Origin: Akkermansiaceae bacterium
GTDB taxonomy: Bacteria; Verrucomicrobiota; Verrucomicrobiia; Verrucomicrobiales; Akkermansiaceae
Reading direction: 5' to 3'
Assembly (NCBI GenBank): GCA_031431855.1
Contig: JANPEG010000067.1
Coordinates: forward strand, 23,770-87,769
Length of the DNA stretch: 64,000 nt
Numbering within the stretch: position 1 is the stretch's first letter; each line of letters begins with the position of its first letter. This document shows positions 38,941 to 49,015 of this stretch, one piece after another. The translations under genes and the position numbers were made by a program. The notes under the pieces were generated by a model, which searched no databases, was not told the origin of the DNA, and saw only the letters and a list, made by a program, of their open reading frames with translations.

Positions 38941-39002
38941 CGGTCAACTCGGCGAGTTGAACCTACCAATAAAAGGTAGGATCAACTGGCCTCAGTCGAC
39001 CG
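38941..39002. repeat. Divergent GTAG-headed REP-like pair
   Basis: GGTAGGTTCAACTCGCCGAGTTGACCG (-) and GGTAGGATCAACTGGCCTCAGTCGACCG (+); the latter overlaps the amidohydrolase stop. Confidence 0.6.
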
Positions 39003-39999
39003 TGATTGTCTTTTTCGCGGATTCTAAAATCTCCGCCATTCGGGTGAAGTGTGAATCATCGAAACCCACTTCCCGTTTCAGGAAGACATCGCGTTCGAGG
39101 ACGTTGGGGTCGCGGTCTGCGGCGCGCCAGGTTTTGAAGCTGATCAAACCCATTCGCCACGGACCGAAGCCGTTTACTGCGATGGGGAAATCACTGCCGT
39201 GGATGATGCGATCGCGCACGGATGCGGGGAGAACCTTTGGCAAGGTCCGACTACGGATCGGGCTGCACAAGGCGGAGTTGTCGCCAAAAAGTCGAGGATA
39301 CTTCTCGAACATCTCGATGAGATGATCGGTGTAGTCAGCGTCCCAAAATCCTGATCGTCCTGCGCAGTGGGCGGCGATTACGGTGACGCCGCATTCGAGG
39401 GGATATTTCAGTAAACGAGGATCGGCAAGCAGTGGATTGATGACAGGTAATGAAAGTTCGCCGCCGGTGTGGGAGAGTAGGATCATCCCTCCCGTTGCCA
39501 TTTTTTCAAAAAAAGGTTTATGCTTTGGATTGGAGTAATCGACGTTGAGGCAGTTGGGCAGTAATTTCAGAACTCGCGCACCGGCAGCGATACAGCGATC
39601 CAGTTCTTCCATGGCGTCAGGGCGGGATGGATGGATGGAAACGGCTGGGATGAATAAATCCGGATACTCGGCGCAGACTTTCAGTAGGTATTCGTTCGGA
39701 ACGTAAAACGCACCTTTTTCTGGCATGGCGATGCCGTCGTCTGTGTGGGGTAGGTCTTGGGCTAATAACACCACGGAATCCAGTGATGAAGTGCGCACCA
39801 TGTGAACCAGTCGGTCTAACAACGCTTCGTCGAGTCCGGTTTGCAAGGAACCTGATGGTAAGCCAGCGGATTTTACAATGATACGCGCCATCAATTGGTG
39901 CAGCGGCGTTCGCATTTGCAGCCAGCAACCACTGCCAGAGCTTCCATCTCCAACTAAATGCACATGACAATCGATACGCTTCAACGCAGGTGTTCCCAT
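38992..39999 (-). CDS. Amidohydrolase family 2 protein
   Basis: IDCHVH, LSHTGGE, IAAHC and IIHGSDFP motifs. Confidence 0.88.
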   Translation of the reverse strand: MGTPALKRIDCHVHLVGDGSSGSGCWLQMRTPLHQLMARIIVKSAGLPSGSLQTGLDEALLDRLVHMVRTSSLDSVVLLAQDLPHTDDGIAMPEKGAFYVPNEYLLKVCAEYPDLFIPAVSIHPSRPDAMEELDRCIAAGARVLKLLPNCLNVDYSNPKHKPFFEKMATGGMILLSHTGGELSLPVINPLLADPRLLKYPLECGVTVIAAHCAGRSGFWDADYTDHLIEMFEKYPRLFGDNSALCSPIRSRTLPKVLPASVRDRIIHGSDFPIAVNGFGPWRMGLISFKTWRAADRDPNVLERDVFLKREVGFDDSHFTRMAEILESAKKTITVD

Positions 40000-40048
40000 G
40001 CGTGATCGATAAACGATAAGTTTAGCAGCGTCTATCAAATGATTGTGG

Positions 40049-42031
40049 TCACCAATCTCCAGGAGTTATAATGGCTCCTGGTTTACTGGCGCTGGTACCG
40101 ACCCAAGTGTCATCTTTGCGGGTGTATTCGTATGGTTTTTTACCTGCAAATTGGACGACTAGAGTGCCGTCCTCAATAATTTTCCAAGTGGCTATCCAAT
40201 CTCTATCGAAAATTTCTAATCTGCCATCCGAATGAGCGATCCATTTGCCTTGTCCACCTCCTGAATGTTCGATCCATTTGCCAACGAAGCTGTCAGAGTT
40301 CACTATGCCCTTCATTTTAATGCGAGTCCACTGGGGCTCAGGTGAAAGCTGATTGATCCAAGGCTCTAGATCTTTTGCAAGCGCCGCCTGACTTGTGAGG
40401 CGCTGCTTAAGCTCAGCGTCAGATGTATCTTTGGCAGCGGTTGTGAGACGGGATAGGTAAGCATCACGGATTTTAGCCAGATCGGCATTGTAGGTGGTGT
40501 CTATTGTGGCCTCTGAGACGAGAGCTTGCTTGAACTGAGTAATAAATTTATCAGGACTCTCGGAGGAGTTCGCTACTTCTGGGATTCGGTTATCTACAAT
40601 GTTCTTTTTAAAGTCATCTATGGTCGGACCCTCGCCCTTTTTATTGTCTCTAATAAGACTTCCGAGTTTGCTAATCAAAGAACTGGCATTATCAGCGAGT
40701 TTTTTATCGCGCTTTTTACGTGCATCGCCGATGAGGCCGACGGCGCGTTTGAGTAGTTCGGGGTCGCCGGGGGTGAGATTTTCTTTCGTCTCAGGTTTTG
40801 GATTCAGAGCCACGACTGGTGGCGTCTCTGGCTCCTTGAAAGGCGGCTCGCTAATTTCGTTGCTGGTGATCTCTTTGGGTTGGGTCTCGGGTTCGATGAC
40901 TGGTGGTTTGCTAGGTTCGTTGCTGGTAATTTTTTGGGGTGCTGGTTCGGGTTTCGTGACCGGCGGAGTTTCAGGGACGAGCGCAAGGGTTGCTCCATCG
41001 TCCGATTTAGCTCCATTTGCAATCGCGATACCTTTCTTGATGTCTTCTTTGTTTTCCTGAAGAAGCTGATAGGTGAAAACGGTGACGGCGGCTAGAATGG
41101 CGACGATAAACCATTTGACGATACCAAAGCCGCTACCCTTACTACCAGCGGTTACAGGGACAGGACGAGCTGTAGGAATGACGGGTTTGGGGGCTCCACT
41201 GACGGGTTTGGGAGTTTCGCTGACCGGGGAACTGGTCGTCTTGGTCGTGGTCCACTTTTCCAGATCGTCTGCCATACTTGCGACAGTCTGATAGCGTTTA
41301 GTGGGATCAGCGTTAACTGCCTTGCTCCAGATCGCATCCAGACGATTATTGCCCGTCAGGTGGGTTGGCGGTTCCATGCACCCAGAGGGATCGATACCAG
41401 TGAGAAGCTGGTGGAGAATAACGCCTACCGAGTAGATATCGGCCAGTGGTCCGGCTTGATCGGGATCTTCAAAGACCTCAGGCGCGGTGTAACCGGGGGT
41501 ACCCATCATTAGGCCAGGTTGGTCGGAGTCAGCTGCGTGAGCTAATCCGAAGTCACCGATTTTAGGTTTAGCACTCAGCGTGAGTAAAATGTTAGATGGC
41601 TTGATGTCGCGGTGAACGATGTCGTTTTCGTGGGCGTGGGCAAGTCCATCGCAAATGCCTTTGACAATTTCGACAGATTGTAGCGAATCGATTGCTTGGT
41701 TGTGGGAGGCTCCGTAAAGTGACTCACCATGCACATATTCCATGACGATATATGGCATCCCATCAATCTCACCGAACTCGAATACACTAATAAGATTCGG
41801 GTGGTTGAGGCGAGCCATCGCTTTAGCTTCACTGGCAAACGCTGTGCGAAATTCGGAATCTCCCAATTCCTTCGGGAGAATTTTGATGGCAACATCGCGA
41901 TCTAGTGAGCGCTGACGACCTTTATATACGGCTCCCATCCCTCCCTGGGCGATGAAATCCTCTATATCATACTGCGGCATGAGCTCAGCGAGGTGCTCCG
42001 GATTTGGCGCCTGAAAAGGTGTGTCGCTCAT
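40049..42031 (-). CDS. Hanks-type Ser/Thr protein kinase, membrane-anchored
   Basis: GGMGAVY, VAIK, HRDIKPSN, DFGLA and GTPGYTAPE motifs; one TM segment; Pro-rich linker with ITSNE twice. Confidence 0.93.
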   Translation of the reverse strand: MSDTPFQAPNPEHLAELMPQYDIEDFIAQGGMGAVYKGRQRSLDRDVAIKILPKELGDSEFRTAFASEAKAMARLNHPNLISVFEFGEIDGMPYIVMEYVHGESLYGASHNQAIDSLQSVEIVKGICDGLAHAHENDIVHRDIKPSNILLTLSAKPKIGDFGLAHAADSDQPGLMMGTPGYTAPEVFEDPDQAGPLADIYSVGVILHQLLTGIDPSGCMEPPTHLTGNNRLDAIWSKAVNADPTKRYQTVASMADDLEKWTTTKTTSSPVSETPKPVSGAPKPVIPTARPVPVTAGSKGSGFGIVKWFIVAILAAVTVFTYQLLQENKEDIKKGIAIANGAKSDDGATLALVPETPPVTKPEPAPQKITSNEPSKPPVIEPETQPKEITSNEISEPPFKEPETPPVVALNPKPETKENLTPGDPELLKRAVGLIGDARKKRDKKLADNASSLISKLGSLIRDNKKGEGPTIDDFKKNIVDNRIPEVANSSESPDKFITQFKQALVSEATIDTTYNADLAKIRDAYLSRLTTAAKDTSDAELKQRLTSQAALAKDLEPWINQLSPEPQWTRIKMKGIVNSDSFVGKWIEHSGGGQGKWIAHSDGRLEIFDRDWIATWKIIEDGTLVVQFAGKKPYEYTRKDDTWVGTSASKPGAIITPGDW

Positions 42032-42231
42032 TTGAAATGTTTCTGTTAGTAGAAATCTATATGCTGAACTATCAGAAGGCAAGTTTGTCACAAAGCCTAA
42101 AAGTGTAAATTTTTCGCCTCAAATCTTAACTTTCGCGACTGAGCAACAGTGACGTAAACAAGCTTTGCGAGCTGAAAAGCCAGATAAGCTGGAGTCGATG
42201 AAATCATTAGTAAAAATGACTCGCCCGACAC

Positions 42232-42477
42232 TTATTTACAGCAAGAGGTCTTGCAGCGTCTTTTAAGGATCAACACGACGAGAACCGCGCCGACTAACAA
42301 CCCGAGCAATCCTGCGATCCACAGTGCGGATTTCGCGGTGTTAAGAATGGGGTTATCGAGAGCGTTGAGTGATACGTGGTAGCCAGCGACGAGCCATTTT
42401 CCGTTTTGTTGGATGAGGGTGGCGGTTCAGCGGCTGGTGAATTCATAGTAACGCCCAAGTAGGTGATAGCCGTAAAC
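42232..42477 (-). pseudogene. C-terminal remnant of an NTF2/SnoaL-like membrane-anchored protein
   Basis: Manual translation gives VYGYHLLGRYYEFTSR*TATLIQQNGKWLVAGYHVSLNALDNPILNTAKSALWIAGLLGLLVGAVLVVLILKRRCKTSCCK*. Internal TGA at 42429-42427; no start codon; absent from the ORF track. Confidence 0.55.
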
Positions 42478-42486
42478 TCAACTCTA

Positions 42487-44034
42487 CTATCTCTGCGCAT
42501 TGGTTTCCGGTTTCATGCGGAAGACGACGACCCGGCGATCTTGGCTGCGAAGGCTCTCAGTGGTGTTTTCGGGGCGACGTGCTTCGCTTTCGCCATAGCC
42601 GACAGGAAGCAGGCGATACGGGGAGACGCCTTGGCGGATGATTTCTCTAACAATGTATTCGGCGCGCTGCTGGGAAAGGATCATGTTGCTTTCATAACTG
42701 CCTTCGGCGGATGCGTGACCCTCTATGACGAAGCGTTCTTCTTCGGGCATGGCTTTCATCGCGTCGGCCATGACACTGACGACATTATAGGAATATGGAT
42801 CGGAGAACTGGGTGGAGCCTTGAAGAAACAAAATGTCTTCGCTGGAGATCATCGATTTTTCGTCGACCGGATAGGAGACGACCCATGAGTTTTCACCACG
42901 GTAGTTTTCGGGTGGCAGGGGCATGGCGTATTGGGCAGAGTCATCCCGACGATCGTAAAATGTGGGGGCCATTTCCCGAGTGGGTTGGAAGCGAACTTGG
43001 TTCATGGCAAGTGCGGCCATGAGGATAGCGGGGATGGATGAACGTGAATCGTAATGCACGTAGCGACGTCCATCGTTCAGATAGCGCGGGCGGACATATT
43101 CGATGCGCTCGACGACACGTTGTTCATTGCGCGGATCTCTTCTGTCTTCGTGATAAGAGGAATGACGGAAAAACTCCGGAAGTGGTCCCTCAACTTCGCG
43201 GCCACGTAAGCGCTCTTGGTAATAGGTCGTTGCTGCGCGACGTTGGTCGGGTGAAGGCTGGGGTGCGCGCTTTTCTCCTTCATACTGGCGTTCGATGCGC
43301 GGACGAAATCGCTCTTCGCGATCCACTTCGGCGCGGGAAATCCGGCTTTCAGCTCCGAGAATTTCATTGATCACGGATTGTGCATCCTTGCGACCTTCGA
43401 TGCGGGTTTTGCGTTGGTCGAGATCGCGATGCACTTCACGTGTTACATCGCTGACTTTGCTTTCTGCGAGGCGCTCAGGTTCTGTTACCGGGACTTCGAC
43501 GATTTCGGGTTTCGTGGGTCTTTCGCGTTTCTCGGGAGAGGGTTTGGGTAATTCCTTTTTCTCGGCGGTTTCTTTAGCGATTTGCTTAGTTTTATCGGCT
43601 GCTTTTTTTTTGCGTAATGCCGCTTCTGTGGCTAGCTTAGCAGTTGCTTCGGCACGCTCGGTTGCTTCCTTTTCACGCATGGCCGCCTCTTTGGCTAACT
43701 TCGCAGATGCTTCAGCGCGATCGGAAGTTTCTTTGAGGGCTTTTTCAGCCTGTCTTGCAGTTTCTTTGGCGAGTTTTGCTGTTTCTCGCGCAGCTTTTTT
43801 CGCGGTTTCTTCGGCGAGTTTGGCAGTTTCCTTGGCGAGCTTTGCGGCCTCCCTTTCATTCTCGGCAATTTTTTTGGCGAGAATGGCTTCAGCTTTGTCT
43901 TTCTCGGATTTTGCGGCCTCGACTGCTTCAGTCTCAATCTCGTTCTTGTCTTGATCTTGAGCGTGAGCCGCAGGATTCAGCAAGAGGAGGAGAATATTTA
44001 GAAGAATGAACGGGATGTGGTGCTTGGGTTTCAT
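42487..44034 (-). CDS. Exported OmpA-like domain protein with Ala/Lys/Glu coiled-coil repeats
   Basis: Signal peptide; repeated AAKLAKETA units; C-terminal EGHAS..G...N..LS..RA, GYGE and DRRV. Confidence 0.85.
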   Translation of the reverse strand: MKPKHHIPFILLNILLLLLNPAAHAQDQDKNEIETEAVEAAKSEKDKAEAILAKKIAENEREAAKLAKETAKLAEETAKKAARETAKLAKETARQAEKALKETSDRAEASAKLAKEAAMREKEATERAEATAKLATEAALRKKKAADKTKQIAKETAEKKELPKPSPEKRERPTKPEIVEVPVTEPERLAESKVSDVTREVHRDLDQRKTRIEGRKDAQSVINEILGAESRISRAEVDREERFRPRIERQYEGEKRAPQPSPDQRRAATTYYQERLRGREVEGPLPEFFRHSSYHEDRRDPRNEQRVVERIEYVRPRYLNDGRRYVHYDSRSSIPAILMAALAMNQVRFQPTREMAPTFYDRRDDSAQYAMPLPPENYRGENSWVVSYPVDEKSMISSEDILFLQGSTQFSDPYSYNVVSVMADAMKAMPEEERFVIEGHASAEGSYESNMILSQQRAEYIVREIIRQGVSPYRLLPVGYGESEARRPENTTESLRSQDRRVVVFRMKPETNAQR

Positions 44035-44184
44035 TGGAACGGTTGTCGCTTATCGCGTCGCTAACCGATAGCCGTTTCATGAGATTTAACTATGGGGCGT
44101 ATCCCTACTTTGCCCTTTGTAGTGGACGCATCTGCGGTTCTGTTAGGTATTCGGCAGCAGAATGCAGCCGCTCTTTGGTGGGTA

Positions 44185-44251
44185 TCACTCCACAATTATG
44201 GGTGTTCCGACAGTTACATTTTCGAAAAACTTTTCAGCCATGAGGTGGGGC
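44185..44251 (-). repeat. Displaced copy of the L,D-transpeptidase gene 3' end
   Basis: 58/67 nt identical to 48306-48372; encodes PHLMAEKFFENVTVGTPIIVE*. Confidence 0.9.
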
Positions 44252-44311
44252 TTGTTAAAAAAGTTAGAATTTATTCTTGACCAAATTTAGAATCGATAGA
44301 ATCTGCGCTGC

Positions 44312-45400
44312 GTGTCCCCCCCACGTTCGAAATTCTTCGGCCTTTCTTGGCTTGTTTTGTCACTAACCACACTTAGTGCAATTGTCATATTATTGCTTTG
44401 GCTGTTTGAGAATGCTCCTGCTAAAGCGAAAGAAGTCGAAAATTTCTCACAGGCTAATCAACAGGAAATCCCTGAGGCCCCAAAACTAACACCTGCACAG
44501 GTTGAATTCTGGGAATACCTTGAACCATTCAATCGTCTGCCTGAAAATCCCACTGACGAAGCTATCGCCGTTTATAACACCAAAGGCATCGCCCCTGAGT
44601 TCAGGTATTTGAAAGAGTCAAAAACATCCGTCTTAGGCGATATAAAAGGCCTAACCGACCATCGTGAGCTGTTCGTGAAACGTTATCCATGGGTGGGTTC
44701 TATTCTGGATGAATATTCGATCGATATTCCCATTTCCACGGAACGCTTTTCAGGAACTGCCGAAGAGATCGGCAAAAAATATGAGGAATTTATGAATACC
44801 AGTGCCAAGCTCGGAGCAAACGCTACGAACGAAAAAATCTTTGTCACTAACTTCCTAGAAGGTCTTCTTGTGGTGGATTATCTCTATGCTCGTGGCACCA
44901 CAGATGACAAAGATCACGGATTGAAAGTGATAGATGGGGTTTTCCATGCCAATGGTGTCATTCATCCGTTTCACAAAACTCTTGAAAGGAAACTGCTGAC
45001 ACCGGCAAGTATGGATATCGGATGGCCAATCATCGCAGATTACCCCGAACGACTGTGGGCTCTGACTCCGAACCGAATTTGGCGTGGTTTTTTTTATTAT
45101 GGCAGTGCGGGAAAAGTCAATTTCAACAAATGGATGCTGAAGACGGATGGTATTAGAGAAATGCAGAACCCCAATAGGCAGGAATTATACCGAGGACTCA
45201 TTCACAATGAGCAAGTGCGTGTAGGGCTACTCAGTTATTCCATTTACACCATGCATTTGAACGAGGTGGTCAGACCGAGCGACGGATCTGGTCTGATTGT
45301 TATCAAAATTCTCTTCAAACGGCTCTATCCCAAAGATCACGACAAAAAATACAGACAATATCTAGCTCTTCTTGATGCAGCTTACCCTATAATAAAATAA
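44312..45400 (+). CDS. Hypothetical membrane-anchored protein
   Basis: 362-aa ORF with an N-terminal TM segment; first gene of the AT-rich cassette. Confidence 0.75.
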   Translation: MSPPRSKFFGLSWLVLSLTTLSAIVILLLWLFENAPAKAKEVENFSQANQQEIPEAPKLTPAQVEFWEYLEPFNRLPENPTDEAIAVYNTKGIAPEFRYLKESKTSVLGDIKGLTDHRELFVKRYPWVGSILDEYSIDIPISTERFSGTAEEIGKKYEEFMNTSAKLGANATNEKIFVTNFLEGLLVVDYLYARGTTDDKDHGLKVIDGVFHANGVIHPFHKTLERKLLTPASMDIGWPIIADYPERLWALTPNRIWRGFFYYGSAGKVNFNKWMLKTDGIREMQNPNRQELYRGLIHNEQVRVGLLSYSIYTMHLNEVVRPSDGSGLIVIKILFKRLYPKDHDKKYRQYLALLDAAYPIIK

Positions 45401-45412
45401 TACCCCCTAAAT

Positions 45413-47392
45413 ATGATACCCCCCCGCTATTCCCTAATATTAATATTGGCCTCAGCTATATTTACTCAAGTCACAAGTGCTCAGGATTTTCCGTTCGCTA
45501 GAGGAACTTTTAATGATTCTGGAAAACTCGCCCAGTGGTCACTTGAAAGAGTGCGCGCACATCGTGATACGGCTATCGGAAAACTAGACGGACTGAAATC
45601 CAATGCCGAAAAAGACAACGCTGCAGATTCTTCATACCTCGCATATTCTAGCCCCATAGTTGAGGAAAAAGTTTTCGAAACGGAATTAGATTTAACGGAA
45701 GAAAAAGGGGTGGTTTTCATAGCTATTCAAGTCGATGATTTAGCTGCTTTATTGATTGATGAAAAACTCACGGGTAACGAGCCGGCAAATTATAGTCCCG
45801 TTGAAGAAACTTTTGTAGTAGAAGGAACGGCACTTTGGAATAAGGACCGATCCTACAGAGAGTTTTCAAGGTATATTCCAGCTGGTCGAAAATATGATCT
45901 CACGCTCATATATCGTAATACTGCTAATCTAACAGATAAATACAATGGTTTTGTCGACTATGATGGTGTGAATGTTTTTATGATGTATTTGCCCGTTGAA
46001 GTGGTGGAATTGGCGCCAAAACTGATAGATGAGAATGGCAAATCTATACCCAATTCTGAAAAGCCCGCTGCGGCTCCAGAAGCTAATGAAATGGTAGAAA
46101 TTGATCCATTGGCTAGCCCTAAAGCTTTGACCGACGCTTCAAATATACGCATTGCATGGAGAGACATAAAAGTGAAGTTCGACAAGCTTTTGGTAGGTAA
46201 AAAGATTACCTGGTCGATGAACCCGCTATACACACCATCTGTCGTGAAATCCACCGGCCCTGCCGAAGTTTTAGCTCCTGATCCAAAGGGGCCAAGATTC
46301 CGAGGATCATGGGATCATGCAGAAGAAACGGCTTCTAAAGATGCATTTTCACCATCAATCGCCTACGGAAAGCATGACTGGGTTCGTTTGTTACCTACAT
46401 CCGGAAGCACACCAGGGACTGCGACCACTATTGTCAAGGAGGAGGGCTACACTGCAATTCGTGTGAATCTTCCTCCAATTGGATTTAACAAAGCAAAAAT
46501 TAAAATTGCCATCGAAGGCCTTGATTTTGAAATAGATCTGATTGATCTGGTCGTTCCTGCTGTTGTGGTGATTGATCCGGGTCATGGAGGATTGTTAGCT
46601 AGTAAAAAAATTGGCGGATCGAGTCCGAATAATGCATATAGTTACGGGTCAGCGCCACCACCATCTGATCCTAAGAGAAAAAGGAAGATTAATGAAACTA
46701 TGGCTGATTATAGAGCTATATTAGACCCGAGAAAGGCTGACGAAACTCATGAACAGCATTGGGCTAGGCTTAGTGTAAGCCTCGAAAAAGACATATCTCT
46801 TAAATATGGAATTGGTTTAAAGAGTTCGCTACATGAGCGATTTGCTTCGGATTCTAATAAAGCACGCATATTAATGACTAGATCAATTGATAAAAATCTT
46901 GAAATCAGTTCACGAGCCAAGATAGCAAAGTTGAATGGAGCTGATATTTTTTTCAGTATTCATTATAATTCGGATGTGAAAGATTGGGTAAGAGGTCCAG
47001 AAGTAATATTAAGAAGCAAAGTTAATAGTAACTTGAACCATGCTGAAGACATGGCCTTTGCAGAGAGAATTTTGAATACATTGGACTCACGGGTTCCAGA
47101 AGCACCCATCAAAGTTGAAAATACAAACTACAAAGATGAGTTGCCTGATTATCGTGGTATCAAGCAATATCCAACCAACCCTACAGGAGTTGATAAAGAT
47201 AGTTCATTAGGTAATTCTGAAATAGGTCCTTGTAGTCATGCTTGCCTTGCTGAAATTGAGTTTATGACTTCACCTGCTGTCGAAAAATCGGTAGTTTCAG
47301 GCCTAACGGCAGATGATGTTAGCCGCTCTTTGTGTAAAGGTTTTGCTATAGCGATAAGTAATGATATCCATGCAAGGAAAGGGGAGAGATAG
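45413..47392 (+). CDS. Secreted multidomain protein with C-terminal N-acetylmuramoyl-L-alanine amidase (Amidase_3)
   Basis: Signal peptide; VVIDPGHGG, LEKD, MTR, DIFFSIHYNS and LAEIEF carry the full H/E/H/E set. Confidence 0.85.
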   Translation: MIPPRYSLILILASAIFTQVTSAQDFPFARGTFNDSGKLAQWSLERVRAHRDTAIGKLDGLKSNAEKDNAADSSYLAYSSPIVEEKVFETELDLTEEKGVVFIAIQVDDLAALLIDEKLTGNEPANYSPVEETFVVEGTALWNKDRSYREFSRYIPAGRKYDLTLIYRNTANLTDKYNGFVDYDGVNVFMMYLPVEVVELAPKLIDENGKSIPNSEKPAAAPEANEMVEIDPLASPKALTDASNIRIAWRDIKVKFDKLLVGKKITWSMNPLYTPSVVKSTGPAEVLAPDPKGPRFRGSWDHAEETASKDAFSPSIAYGKHDWVRLLPTSGSTPGTATTIVKEEGYTAIRVNLPPIGFNKAKIKIAIEGLDFEIDLIDLVVPAVVVIDPGHGGLLASKKIGGSSPNNAYSYGSAPPPSDPKRKRKINETMADYRAILDPRKADETHEQHWARLSVSLEKDISLKYGIGLKSSLHERFASDSNKARILMTRSIDKNLEISSRAKIAKLNGADIFFSIHYNSDVKDWVRGPEVILRSKVNSNLNHAEDMAFAERILNTLDSRVPEAPIKVENTNYKDELPDYRGIKQYPTNPTGVDKDSSLGNSEIGPCSHACLAEIEFMTSPAVEKSVVSGLTADDVSRSLCKGFAIAISNDIHARKGER

Positions 47393-47419
47393 AATTCAAA
47401 ATTACAAATAAATATTTAT

Positions 47420-48223
47420 ATGAAAAAAAATCAAATTATATTAATAATCGTCGGAATTTTGGTTATTTCGTTTGGATGTTGGATGAAAATCAAAATTAAT
47501 CAGCATTTTGAAAATACTTTAAAATCTGAAACAAAGAATAATAAAGAGAAACTGAAACTAACTAATAATATTTTTTTGATTAAAACTGATATATCGGATC
47601 AAAATGGAAACTTACGTGAGATTGATTCGGATCATCTTCAATCATTCCGAGTTTCTGGAGATTCTATATTTAAAGGTGATAGGTTAATTTGGAACAGTGA
47701 AAAAGAGCATATAAACTTTGTGCAAGAGAGTCCTGATGGCAGTATGCTACTATTTTATAAGCAAATCTCTGATAAATACGTCATTTTAGGACAACTTGAT
47801 GAAAAATACGAAGAGTTGACTATCGAACTGCCTGGACGAGACAAGGCCACTCGCGAGGATGGTCGTTATTGGGTAGGTAACGATATCTTAATAAGTGAAT
47901 ACATTGATGATTTCGATCCTGTTCCCAAAGGACATGGCAATGAGGGATGGATAAAGGGGAGTATATTATACGCCTATGATTTGAAGAATAAAACTTATGG
48001 TGAACTTAAGCTTGAAGATCTTTTGAGCTCTGAGCTTGTTCAATACAAAATTCTAACTGATGAATATGAACCTTCTTATTCTTATAAACTTCCGATTTTA
48101 CGATACTACCGGATAAAAGGCATTACCGACGAAGGCGTGATATTTTTAACATCAGTTGACACAAGCCAGCCACTGGGAGGTAATCCGAAGGATGAAGGTG
48201 CATTTGAGATCAAGGTGAAATAA
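47420..48223 (+). CDS. AT-rich hypothetical exported protein (candidate immunity or partner)
   Basis: N-terminal hydrophobic anchor; beta-rich pattern (SPDGSMLLF); directly follows the amidase gene. Confidence 0.7.
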   Translation: MKKNQIILIIVGILVISFGCWMKIKINQHFENTLKSETKNNKEKLKLTNNIFLIKTDISDQNGNLREIDSDHLQSFRVSGDSIFKGDRLIWNSEKEHINFVQESPDGSMLLFYKQISDKYVILGQLDEKYEELTIELPGRDKATREDGRYWVGNDILISEYIDDFDPVPKGHGNEGWIKGSILYAYDLKNKTYGELKLEDLLSSELVQYKILTDEYEPSYSYKLPILRYYRIKGITDEGVIFLTSVDTSQPLGGNPKDEGAFEIKVK

Positions 48224-48242
48224 TTTACGGCCTTAAAGCATC

Positions 48243-48280
48243 GGCGCCCCGACAGATCGGCGACCCCCGACAGATCGGGG
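48243..48280. repeat. Tandem CCCCGACAGATCGG hairpin repeat
   Basis: 14-mer at 48247 and 48265, between the converging stop codons. Confidence 0.65.
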
Positions 48281-48305
48281 TAAACGAAAGATCGCCGCCA
48301 CGAAA

Positions 48306-48914
48306 TCACTCCACAATCACGGGTGTCCCGACGGTCACGTTTTCGAAGAACTTTTCTGCCATGTGGTGGGGCATTCTAACGCAACCGTGCGATGCGGCGT
48401 AGCCTGGGAGGTAGCCGGTGTGCATTCCGATGGCGTTATTGAAGCGCATGAAATATGGCATGGGGGCATTGTAGAAGGCTTGGCCGGGGCCGACTTTATC
48501 TACGCGGATATCCGCGCTGTCATTAATGACAGCTCCGGTGGTCTTGTCTTTGATGACGCCGTAGAGAGTTGATTTGTGGTCTTTGTTTTTCTGGATGATT
48601 TTGTAATTGCCCGGAGGCGTGCCGGAATCTTCTTTTCCGGAGGAGATTTTTGAAACCCCAACGAGTTTGTTGCCCTTGTAAAAATAGGCTTTTTGATGAG
48701 TGCGATTGATCTTGATGACCGATGGGCCTTGCGTGTCATCGCCTTCCCAGTAAGAGACATCATCGGGAATAGCAGGCGCTGGAGTGCCGGGGCCACCGGA
48801 GGTGGGTCGATGGATTGGGCCACCGATGCCGGCGAGGTAATCGGAGCCTGGAGGTTTGGTATCCACGCAGGAAACGAGGAGGATCGTGCAGGCGAGTAGA
48901 TAAAAGTATTTCAT
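48306..48914 (-). CDS. L,D-transpeptidase (YkuD) lipoprotein
   Basis: Lipobox LVSC; TPPGNYKI, MPYFMRF and IGMHTG...ASHGCVRM (HxGC catalytic motif). Confidence 0.93.
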   Translation of the reverse strand: MKYFYLLACTILLVSCVDTKPPGSDYLAGIGGPIHRPTSGGPGTPAPAIPDDVSYWEGDDTQGPSVIKINRTHQKAYFYKGNKLVGVSKISSGKEDSGTPPGNYKIIQKNKDHKSTLYGVIKDKTTGAVINDSADIRVDKVGPGQAFYNAPMPYFMRFNNAIGMHTGYLPGYAASHGCVRMPHHMAEKFFENVTVGTPVIVE

Positions 48915-49015
48915 GAATGCGTAGTAATTAGACTGAATTGTGCGGATTTGCAAGCCCGTCGGTCGGGTAAGCGCGTAGCAAGAGTTGCGGAAACGGAAAA
49001 AATTCCATAAACCAT

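Follow-up and report, generated by a model that had tools for sequence, protein, structure and literature searches.

The window analysed here is a 64,000-nucleotide (nt) stretch of contig JANPEG010000067.1 from an Akkermansiaceae bacterium. Between positions 44312 and 48223 it carries three co-oriented genes, A, B and C, encoding a membrane-tethered protein, a predicted exported peptidoglycan amidase and a further exported protein. We describe this element as a candidate toxin-immunity cassette. The source genome comprises 3.32 Mb in 118 contigs and is 97% complete; every open reading frame (ORF) in it was searched. The genes and the parts of B, with lengths in amino acids (aa), are as follows.

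44312-45400, + strand: gene A, 362 aa; membrane-tethered, with a transmembrane (TM) helix at aa 8-33, a linker and an all-alpha domain at aa 61-357
45413-47392, + strand: gene B, 659 aa; Sec signal, N-domain, central module and Amidase_3 domain
45413-45481, + strand: Sec-type signal peptide of B, aa 1-23 (...VTSA/QD), recognised by sequence inspection, with equivalent N-termini in the paralogs
45482-45988, + strand: N-terminal domain of B, aa 24-192; predicted divergent PA14-like beta-sandwich after short helices, the family's conserved front end
45989-46024, + strand: module junction LPVEVVELAPKL, aa 193-204
46025-46558, + strand: central module of B, about aa 205-382; beta-rich
46559-47392, + strand: Amidase_3 catalytic domain of B, aa 383-659; H391, E458, H517 and E614, with an insert at aa 393-455
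46574-46588, + strand: swap junction at DPGHG, inside the amidase domain of B
47420-48223, + strand: gene C, 267 aa; signal-anchored and exported, founding member of the family fam1; predicted immunity protein

A and B are separated by 12 nt, B and C by 27 nt. The first-pass annotation of this DNA had placed a membrane-anchored gene ahead of B, a Sec-type signal on B and an AT-rich exported gene 27 nt past it, and all three hold up: A has the modelled TM helix, B starts with MIPPRYSLILILASAIFTQVTSA followed by QD (by inspection), and C has a hydrophobic N-terminal anchor. The GC content is 0.44 in A, 0.39-0.45 along B and 0.34 in C, compared with 0.50 for the window and 0.51 for the genome. 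Third-position GC is 0.28-0.30 in the catalytic part of B and in C (46559-48223) versus 0.33-0.43 in A and the 5' part of B, a difference that may be a slight hint of recent module replacement in the window copy. A promoter and terminator scan of the cassette returned fewer sites than shuffled sequence and is hence uninformative.

Residues 385-629 of B match Pfam Amidase_3 (PF01520; E=2e-13, 51.2 bits against a cut-off of 27), the sole Pfam match in the protein. The zinc ligands and catalytic residues that had been read from the letters are all present, in the motifs DPGHG (388-392), LEKD (457-460), SIHYN (515-519) and AEIEF (613-617). Across the 36 aligned sequences of the family, H391, E458 and H517 never vary and E614 hardly does. 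The AlphaFold model of B, computed from a 62-sequence alignment (predicted local distance difference test, pLDDT, 87.6; predicted template modelling score, pTM, 0.86), consists of three parts: a beta-sandwich with short helices (aa 24 to about 192), a beta-rich module (about 193-382) and an Amidase_3 fold. The N-terminal domain is modelled at pLDDT >90. The C-terminal part superposes on CwlV, LytH, AmiA/B/C and Rv3717 (Foldseek, E down to 7e-11), most closely on CwlV (1jwq; TM-score 0.82 over the target). The insert of about 55 residues between H391 and E458 (aa 393-455) has low model confidence.

B itself has no direct Pfam match to PA14. A profile of 46 N-domain sequences aligns with the N-terminus of an amidase paralog in the same genome, on C42, at an hhalign probability of 97% (E=6e-11), and that N-terminus matches Pfam PA14 (PF07691; E=2.4e-5, 24.6 bits against a cut-off of 24). 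The alignment supports an earlier guess that FIAIQVDDLAALLIDE, at aa 102-117, is a PA14-type strand, and we describe the N-domain of B as PA14-like. The string LPVEVVELAPKL, suspected before of marking a module boundary, is a true junction: the region that homologs of unrelated N-terminus have in common begins at LLPVEVVEL. The search with B found 70 amidase homologs of 367-1143 aa, mostly from Verrucomicrobia. Their N-termini are mutually unrelated (TSP3 repeats, DUF3466 or nothing recognisable), and the shared region begins at LLPVEVVEL in all of them. The motif LLP[VIM]E[VI] closes the N-domain in members of that family and opens the shared region in amidases with other N-termini. Within B's amidase family the central module always sits immediately before the amidase domain.

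Pfam detects no known trafficking domain in B or in nine long homologs, where TSP3 repeats and, in one protein, DUF3466 are all that it adds; PAAR, VgrG, Rhs and MIX domains are likewise absent by Pfam. A search of the 97%-complete genome for TssC (PF05943) found no match, and thus no sheath gene of a type VI secretion system (T6SS). Both searches agree with the lack of T6SS and Rhs hallmarks that had been noted for the window. We reject a T6SS effector identity for B: the genome has no TssC, and Pfam finds no PAAR, VgrG, Rhs or MIX domain.

The N-domain family and its partner gene A

The genome contains four further A-B pairs, in each of which an A paralog lies directly upstream of a B-type gene. 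The B-type paralogs share 40-51% identity with B over the first ~200 residues (aa 1 to about 210) and then diverge. They lie at C23:8833-17135, C42:37220-41019 and C44:1-1616.

C23, first cassette: 720-aa B-type protein with an AIAKHESKDY…GFGLFQVTG end; lytic transglycosylase- or lysozyme-like by motif only, without Pfam or PDB support
C23, second cassette: 759-aa B-type protein with a IHPDGWKNGTSGCIGI end (IHPDGWKNGTSGC); Pfam Tlde1_dom at E=0.017, below threshold
C42 cassette: 581-aa B-type protein with HEVGHTLGLDH, a metzincin motif; Pfam matches sub-threshold
C44 pair: B-type gene cut by the contig end, its C-terminal part lying beyond

On C23 the two cassettes stand in tandem, each with a 4-nt overlap between its A and B genes. 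The A gene on C44 appears to be split into two ORFs. GC content of the paralogous cassettes is 0.44-0.47. The three complete ones each end with a small exported gene (213, 292 and 285 aa), and these genes are unrelated to C and to one another. PDB sequence searches with the C-termini of paralogs B1 and B2 found nothing, so the lysozyme-like and Tlde1-like labels stay at the level of motifs and sub-threshold matches.

Among 1.84 billion proteins, the N-domain of B (aa 24-212) defines 46 clusters at 50% identity. It is always N-terminal, in proteins of 84-1092 aa, and is followed by many different ends. Besides more Amidase_3 domains, these include a second Tlde1-like end, several HExxH peptidases, ends resembling alpha/beta-hydrolases or lipases (GHSLG-type motifs; DUF900 with 19 bits, short of its cut-off of 20.5), DUF6973, which clears its cut-off with 34 bits, and one HHIIPH motif reminiscent of AHH nucleases. 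Homologs that share the N-terminal/LPVE region with B and carry other C-terminal domains, which the first-pass annotation had proposed to look for, were found: the four paralogs and the 46 clusters combine a shared N-domain with variable C-termini.

Searches of Pfam and NCBIfam at E<=0.1, and of PHROG, return no family for gene A. Its AlphaFold model (pLDDT 87.9) is all-alpha, and a PDB fold search with the model gave no significant neighbour (best E=0.37). Homologs of A are rare, with 27 clusters among 5.8 billion proteins. In 12 of the 12 loci with visible context, the gene upstream of the N-domain protein is an A homolog. The match is strong for a lipase-like member (E=3e-67) and weak for L186, the most divergent member of the N-domain family (E=3e-5). 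A accompanies the N-domain rather than the amidase, being paired also with HExxH-peptidase, lipase-like and other ends. Judged by this gene order, A is the invariant partner of the N-terminal domain of B and not an incidental neighbour. Several A homologs have lipoboxes and others a signal-anchor helix, suggesting that the family is tethered on the periplasmic side. Two A genes stand alone, with no B-type neighbour: one (L006:8476-10933) lies immediately downstream of a 375-aa YkuD-type gene, and the other (L009:9983-11481) is followed only by a 140-aa ORF.

Gene C and the subtype of the amidase domain

Gene C has no match in Pfam, NCBIfam or PHROG and just two homologs among 5.8 billion proteins. 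The first, at L011, follows a B fragment that is 87% identical to B. The second, at L010, is 52% identical to C and is the second gene past a B-type toxin with a lysozyme-like end; no amidase partner is found there, and both this C homolog and a gene of a second family, fam2, lie downstream of the non-amidase toxin. The L010 homolog bridges gene C to Cp1, the gene that follows the C42 amidase paralog (E=7e-10). A profile built from these sequences defines the family fam1; searched against the PDB, it gave nothing below E=0.7. Proteins of fam2 have a signal peptide and a C-terminal TM helix.

Members of fam1 directly follow the amidase gene in nine loci and occur once as an orphan, at L010. The matches after amidases are strong in L012, L097, L172 and L174 (E <=1e-58) and lower in L095 (E=1.5e-11) and L096 (E=1e-9), and L094 has two weak fam1 copies (E about 4e-4). 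Members of fam2 follow the amidase in L013, L093, L098, L099 and L173. As an extra gene after fam1, fam2 is found at L010 and at the C42 amidase locus (leave-one-out E=5.6e-16). When the catalytic domains are clustered from DPGHG onward, the downstream family co-varies with the subtype:

Catalytic cluster 1, size 47: 7 loci with visible context; fam1 downstream in 7/7
Catalytic cluster 2, size 20: 5 loci with visible context; fam2 downstream in 5/5
Small cluster of B itself, size 2: 2 loci (the window, and L011 by its 87% identity to B, outside the clustering); fam1

The fam1 matches in the seven loci of cluster 1 comprise five strong ones, the L095 match at E=1.5e-11 and the weak one in L094. 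Fisher's exact test on subtype versus downstream family gives about 0.001 if the loci are taken as independent.

A natural swap is seen between L172 and L173. The amidases of these loci, P0003 and P0004, are 98.1% identical over 523 aa, and the DNA is 98.8% identical over 1699 nt, in an alignment that ends no more than 2 nt from the DPGHG codons. Past DPGHG, protein identity falls to 27%, one domain belonging to cluster 1 and the other to cluster 2, and the gene after the amidase is fam1 in L172 (E=3e-59) and fam2 in L173 (E=9e-13). The breakpoint, together with the switched downstream gene, indicates that the catalytic domain and the gene behind it were exchanged as a unit at a fixed junction. 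Variation occurs at two junctions, one after the PA14-like domain and the other at DPGHG within the amidase. These comparisons support the view that the downstream gene behaves like a cognate immunity gene.

The C42 amidase paralog (C42:62369-64063) is the fifth amidase of the genome, a 564-aa protein with PA14, central module and Amidase_3. Its locus, C42:61602-65536, has no A partner; a 234-aa helical exported protein precedes the amidase, and one fam1 and one fam2 gene follow it, the fam2 gene being a non-matching, orphan-like one behind this cluster 1 enzyme.

Insertion and distribution of the cassette

The cassette is bracketed by a 75-nt direct repeat with 84% identity between its copies, which are spaced 4121 nt apart and enclose 4.1 kb.

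44184-44258, - strand: left repeat copy; orphan, AT-richer end of an L,D-transpeptidase gene, the last ~22 codons and stop (MAEKFFENVTVGTPIIVE, then stop)
48305-48379, - strand: right repeat copy; 3' end of the intact L,D-transpeptidase (YkuD) gene 48306-48953

What is repeated is the end of ykuD (its last ~22 codons with the stop), intact on one side of the cassette and orphaned on the other. The orphan copy is AT-richer in its codons, like the cassette, and the same fragment precedes A in L172, which suggests that this end of ykuD travels with the cassette. No integrase is encoded inside the cassette. The bracketing may have arisen, for instance, by Campbell-type insertion of a circular intermediate.

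On the right, the cassette is flanked by the YkuD L,D-transpeptidase itself (48306-48953, - strand), and a CorA-like protein is also among the neighbours. On the left lies an OmpA-family protein (42487-44034, - strand; 515 aa, exported), which combines ~150 residues of Lys/Ala/Glu-rich repeats (AKLAKETA-type) with a C-terminal OmpA peptidoglycan-binding domain.

The ykuD gene belongs to the core of the genus (35 of 37 genomes), and the content downstream of it is different in each of the congeners examined. The closest congener (L176) has the ortholog of window gene 38992-40038 immediately after ykuD. Compared with this genome, the window has 40049-48305 in addition, including a Ser/Thr kinase gene (40049-42091), the OmpA-like gene (42487-44034) and the cassette. 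Gene A is absent from 36 congeners and from 24 genomes of the same order; B itself was not searched in the congeners. Only 4 of ~185,000 species representatives have the A family: two Akkermansiaceae metagenome-assembled genomes (MAGs), one Verrucomicrobiota MAG and one Luteolibacter MAG. A scan for related loci with A alone found nothing, and an alignment-based search was needed. With the low GC content and the bracketing repeat, this distribution indicates that the cassette is accessory, inserted and horizontally acquired.

Canonical Amidase_3 genes are found elsewhere in the genome, on C92 (198 aa, 168 bits) and C116 (348 aa, 155 bits). A further gene, C57:10139-11410 (- strand; 423 aa), encodes a protein with an N-terminal anchor and a partial, divergent Amidase_3 match (30 bits, profile positions 1-80 only). 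On a metagenome contig, an A-B-fam1 cassette (L174:6805-10996) lies in the dcw cluster between murG and a murC/murB fusion, which is followed by ddl; this cassette has a PhdYeFM/PIN pair upstream and a SUKH-family gene downstream.

Interpretation and comparison with known systems

Based on these observations, we suggest that A-B-C is one copy of a mobile three-gene polymorphic toxin-immunity cassette specific to Verrucomicrobia, with a probability of roughly 0.68. What leads to this reading is the combination of a constant N-terminal part and partner, exchangeable ends, matching downstream genes, a sharp junction, apparent orphan partners, multiple copies, patchy distribution and atypical composition. 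The first-pass annotation had likewise proposed a polymorphic-toxin-like system with a variable enzymatic C-terminus, and the comparative checks that it suggested all came out in favour. The evidence that supports the proposal is comparative: the variable ends, the co-varying downstream gene and the swap.

In the proposed mechanism, B would be exported by Sec, with its constant PA14-like N-domain serving in delivery or targeting. The C-terminus would act as a zinc N-acetylmuramoyl-L-alanine amidase and cut peptide stems off the peptidoglycan of competitors or of kin that lack protection. From its anchor at the periplasmic face, C would neutralise the cognate amidase subtype in the producer. 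By analogy, and with moderate confidence, we propose that A is a periplasmic handling factor for the PA14-like domain, helping it to cross the outer membrane, to be displayed there or to be released. A second possible function of the PA14-like domain is binding of target-cell glycans. We infer the toxicity of B, the immunity conferred by C, the role of A and the route of B to target peptidoglycan from the comparisons above.

More tentatively, and with odds clearly below even, A and the PA14-like N-domain may form a dedicated, previously undescribed route of outer-membrane export or delivery, resembling MafA/MafB of Neisseria in function with unrelated folds. Such a route would carry interchangeable envelope-degrading toxins, and in fam1 and fam2 it would have the first immunity proteins against Amidase_3 toxins known to us.

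Several points weigh against the toxin-immunity interpretation. The case for toxicity and protection comes from comparative genomics. Most of the non-amidase C-terminal assignments are sub-threshold Pfam matches or motifs. C and Cp1 are joined only transitively or by profile (direct BLAST E=0.5), and the loci in the co-variation count are not phylogenetically independent. No orphan toxin C-terminal cassettes or fragments were seen. An exported amidase must cross the outer membrane of a diderm target, for which we see no import mechanism. Neither a fold nor a motif can be recognised in A, its proposed export role being by analogy. Finally, Amidase_3 enzymes need protein activators (EnvC, NlpD, ActH, GerS), so the co-varying partner could be an activator rather than an inhibitor.

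Of the other explanations, one holds that these proteins are secreted or surface enzymes that lyse bacteria or scavenge polymers for nutrition, with the N-domain binding glycans or wall debris and C shielding the producer's own wall during export. In its favour, PA14 domains typically bind carbohydrates and the N-domain resembles them, the C-terminal repertoire consists of hydrolases of envelope polymers, and Verrucomicrobia are known as polymer degraders. The searches described above (TssC in the genome; Pfam on B and nine homologs) also found no machinery for contact-dependent delivery. We nevertheless regard this explanation as unlikely, because the subtype-specific co-variation, the joint swapping and the orphan partner genes all point to an arms race. 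One family member has the nuclease-like HHIIPH motif, and nutritional enzymes are usually conserved within a genus, whereas the cassette is absent from the 36 congeners by the gene A search.

Activation of the amidase by its downstream partner appears less likely still. Here an accessory amidase would remodel the producer's own wall, with fam1 and fam2 activating or regulating it in a subtype-specific way and A as a membrane scaffold. The well-studied Amidase_3 enzymes are all controlled by partners, and solved complexes of this kind (7tj4, LytH-ActH; 8c0j, AmiB-EnvC; 7rag, CwlD-GerS) are among the fold matches of B. Wall-related genes are also nearby, both in the window (the OmpA-like protein and YkuD) and at L174, with murG and murC/B on either side of the cassette in the dcw cluster. 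However, A pairs with the N-domain and not with the amidase, and does so in front of HExxH-peptidase, lipase-like and other ends. Partner genes without their enzyme, as at L010 or in the case of fam2 after the cluster 1 amidase, make no sense for an activator. The cassette is moreover multi-copy, low in GC and species-specific, in a genome that has canonical amidases elsewhere.

A remnant phage lysis cassette of a holin-like protein, a secreted endolysin and a spanin-like protein would fit the order of TM protein, amidase and TM protein in one operon, the weak PHROG endolysin matches of the amidase domain (E=1.6e-4) and the inserted, repeat-bracketed block. We reject it as very improbable: A and C match no PHROG family, A with its 362 aa and single anchor is not holin-like, no phage genes lie in the 8 kb around the cassette, the same A and N-domain pair bears non-lytic ends, and the presence of five copies in the genome is at odds with it. 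A housekeeping division amidase of the AmiC kind with conserved neighbours, for which the intact catalytic site speaks, is rejected with the same firmness, given the absence of the cassette from all 36 congeners searched with gene A, next to a core ykuD, the two canonical amidases elsewhere, scores far under the NCBIfam cut-offs (AmiA 19.8 bits against 400, AmiC 16.5 against 700, CwlD also far below) and a C-terminus that varies across the N-domain family. The homologs are not always full-length with the same neighbours, the pattern that had been named in advance as the mark of such an enzyme.

Verrucomicrobia are abundant in soil, freshwater and guts, and to our knowledge little interbacterial weaponry has been described in them. 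In the toxin-immunity interpretation, the cassette family would be a complete candidate system: a partner for delivery, a domain that stays constant, toxins that can be exchanged and two families of immunity proteins. None of these parts except Amidase_3 has an above-threshold match to a curated Pfam family, and NCBIfam has no match for A or the N-domain of B (the relatives of C were not scanned there). We know of a lipoprotein-dependent route for Sec-exported polymorphic toxins only from Neisseria Maf; if A mediates export, the cassette would represent a second, independent one. Likewise, we know only of activators for Amidase_3 enzymes and of no immunity protein for Amidase_3-type toxins, so that fam1 and fam2, if the interpretation is true, would be natural, subtype-specific protein inhibitors of these enzymes. 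The exact breakpoint at DPGHG offers a clean handle for domain-swap work.

Among known systems, the regulated Amidase_3 enzymes (AmiA/B/C with EnvC/NlpD, LytH-ActH, CwlD-GerS) share with B the catalytic fold, the ligands and a dedicated partner protein. Their partner activates a housekeeping enzyme and is conserved across relatives, whereas the pair described here is accessory, polymorphic and swapped as a unit, with partners that also occur as orphans. The T6SS pairs (Tae/Tai, Tse1-Tsi1, Tlde1) likewise place a peptidoglycan-cleaving toxin beside a periplasmic immunity gene, and one paralog is Tlde1-like by motif. Tae enzymes are papain-like peptidases (NlpC/P60 or CHAP) delivered by the T6SS. 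B differs in having a zinc Amidase_3 fold and a Sec signal, in a genome without TssC.

The polymorphic toxin systems surveyed in PMC3482391 include a class assigned to Sec and the type II secretion system (T2SS) alone ('Sec/T2SS-only'). With this class the cassette shares a conserved trafficking N-terminal part, recombining toxin C-domains and an immunity gene directly downstream; a sharp recombination junction is also a feature in common with the surveyed systems, and the apparent orphan immunity genes may be another (PMC3482391). The toxin here is an Amidase_3 enzyme, and the A family, fam1 and fam2 match no Pfam family, in which the cassette differs from the systems described in the portions of the survey available to us. 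Those portions do not appear to mention PA14 or Amidase_3 by name; they do describe an FlgJ-like glycohydrolase superfamily, one member of which bears the annotation N-acetylmuramoyl-L-alanine amidase (PMC3482391).

In the Maf systems of Neisseria, the gene order is mafA-mafB-mafI, and MafB carries a variable toxin end behind its signal peptide and conserved N-domain (PMC7738311, PMC4287609). MafA is a lipoprotein that forms oligomers in the outer membrane and is required for MafB export (PMC7738311, PMC4287609). MafA is predicted to be mixed alpha/beta (PMC7738311), in contrast to the all-alpha model of A. For A, no family of Pfam or NCBIfam came up at E<=0.1, a result obtained without direct comparison to a MafA sequence and with a MafA model in the libraries unverified. 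Pfam does not report the DUF1020 of MafB in B; it assigns B Amidase_3 only, and the N-domain of B is PA14-like. The cassette also belongs to a different phylum, its ends are mostly envelope-acting enzymes, and no orphan C-terminal cassettes were seen. The MafB toxins characterised so far work in the cytoplasm, EndoU RNases being one example. The two systems agree in the order of their parts: a partner of ~34-40 kDa that is membrane-tethered or a lipoprotein, a Sec-signal toxin with a variable end and a small immunity gene. Both occur in several copies per genome on low-GC islands, and both are delivered, or in the cassette would be, without a type V secretion system (T5SS), T6SS or type VII secretion system (T7SS). 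Since no sequence relationship to Maf proteins was detected, the likeness is one of analogy and not of membership, and on that footing Maf is the closest described architecture.

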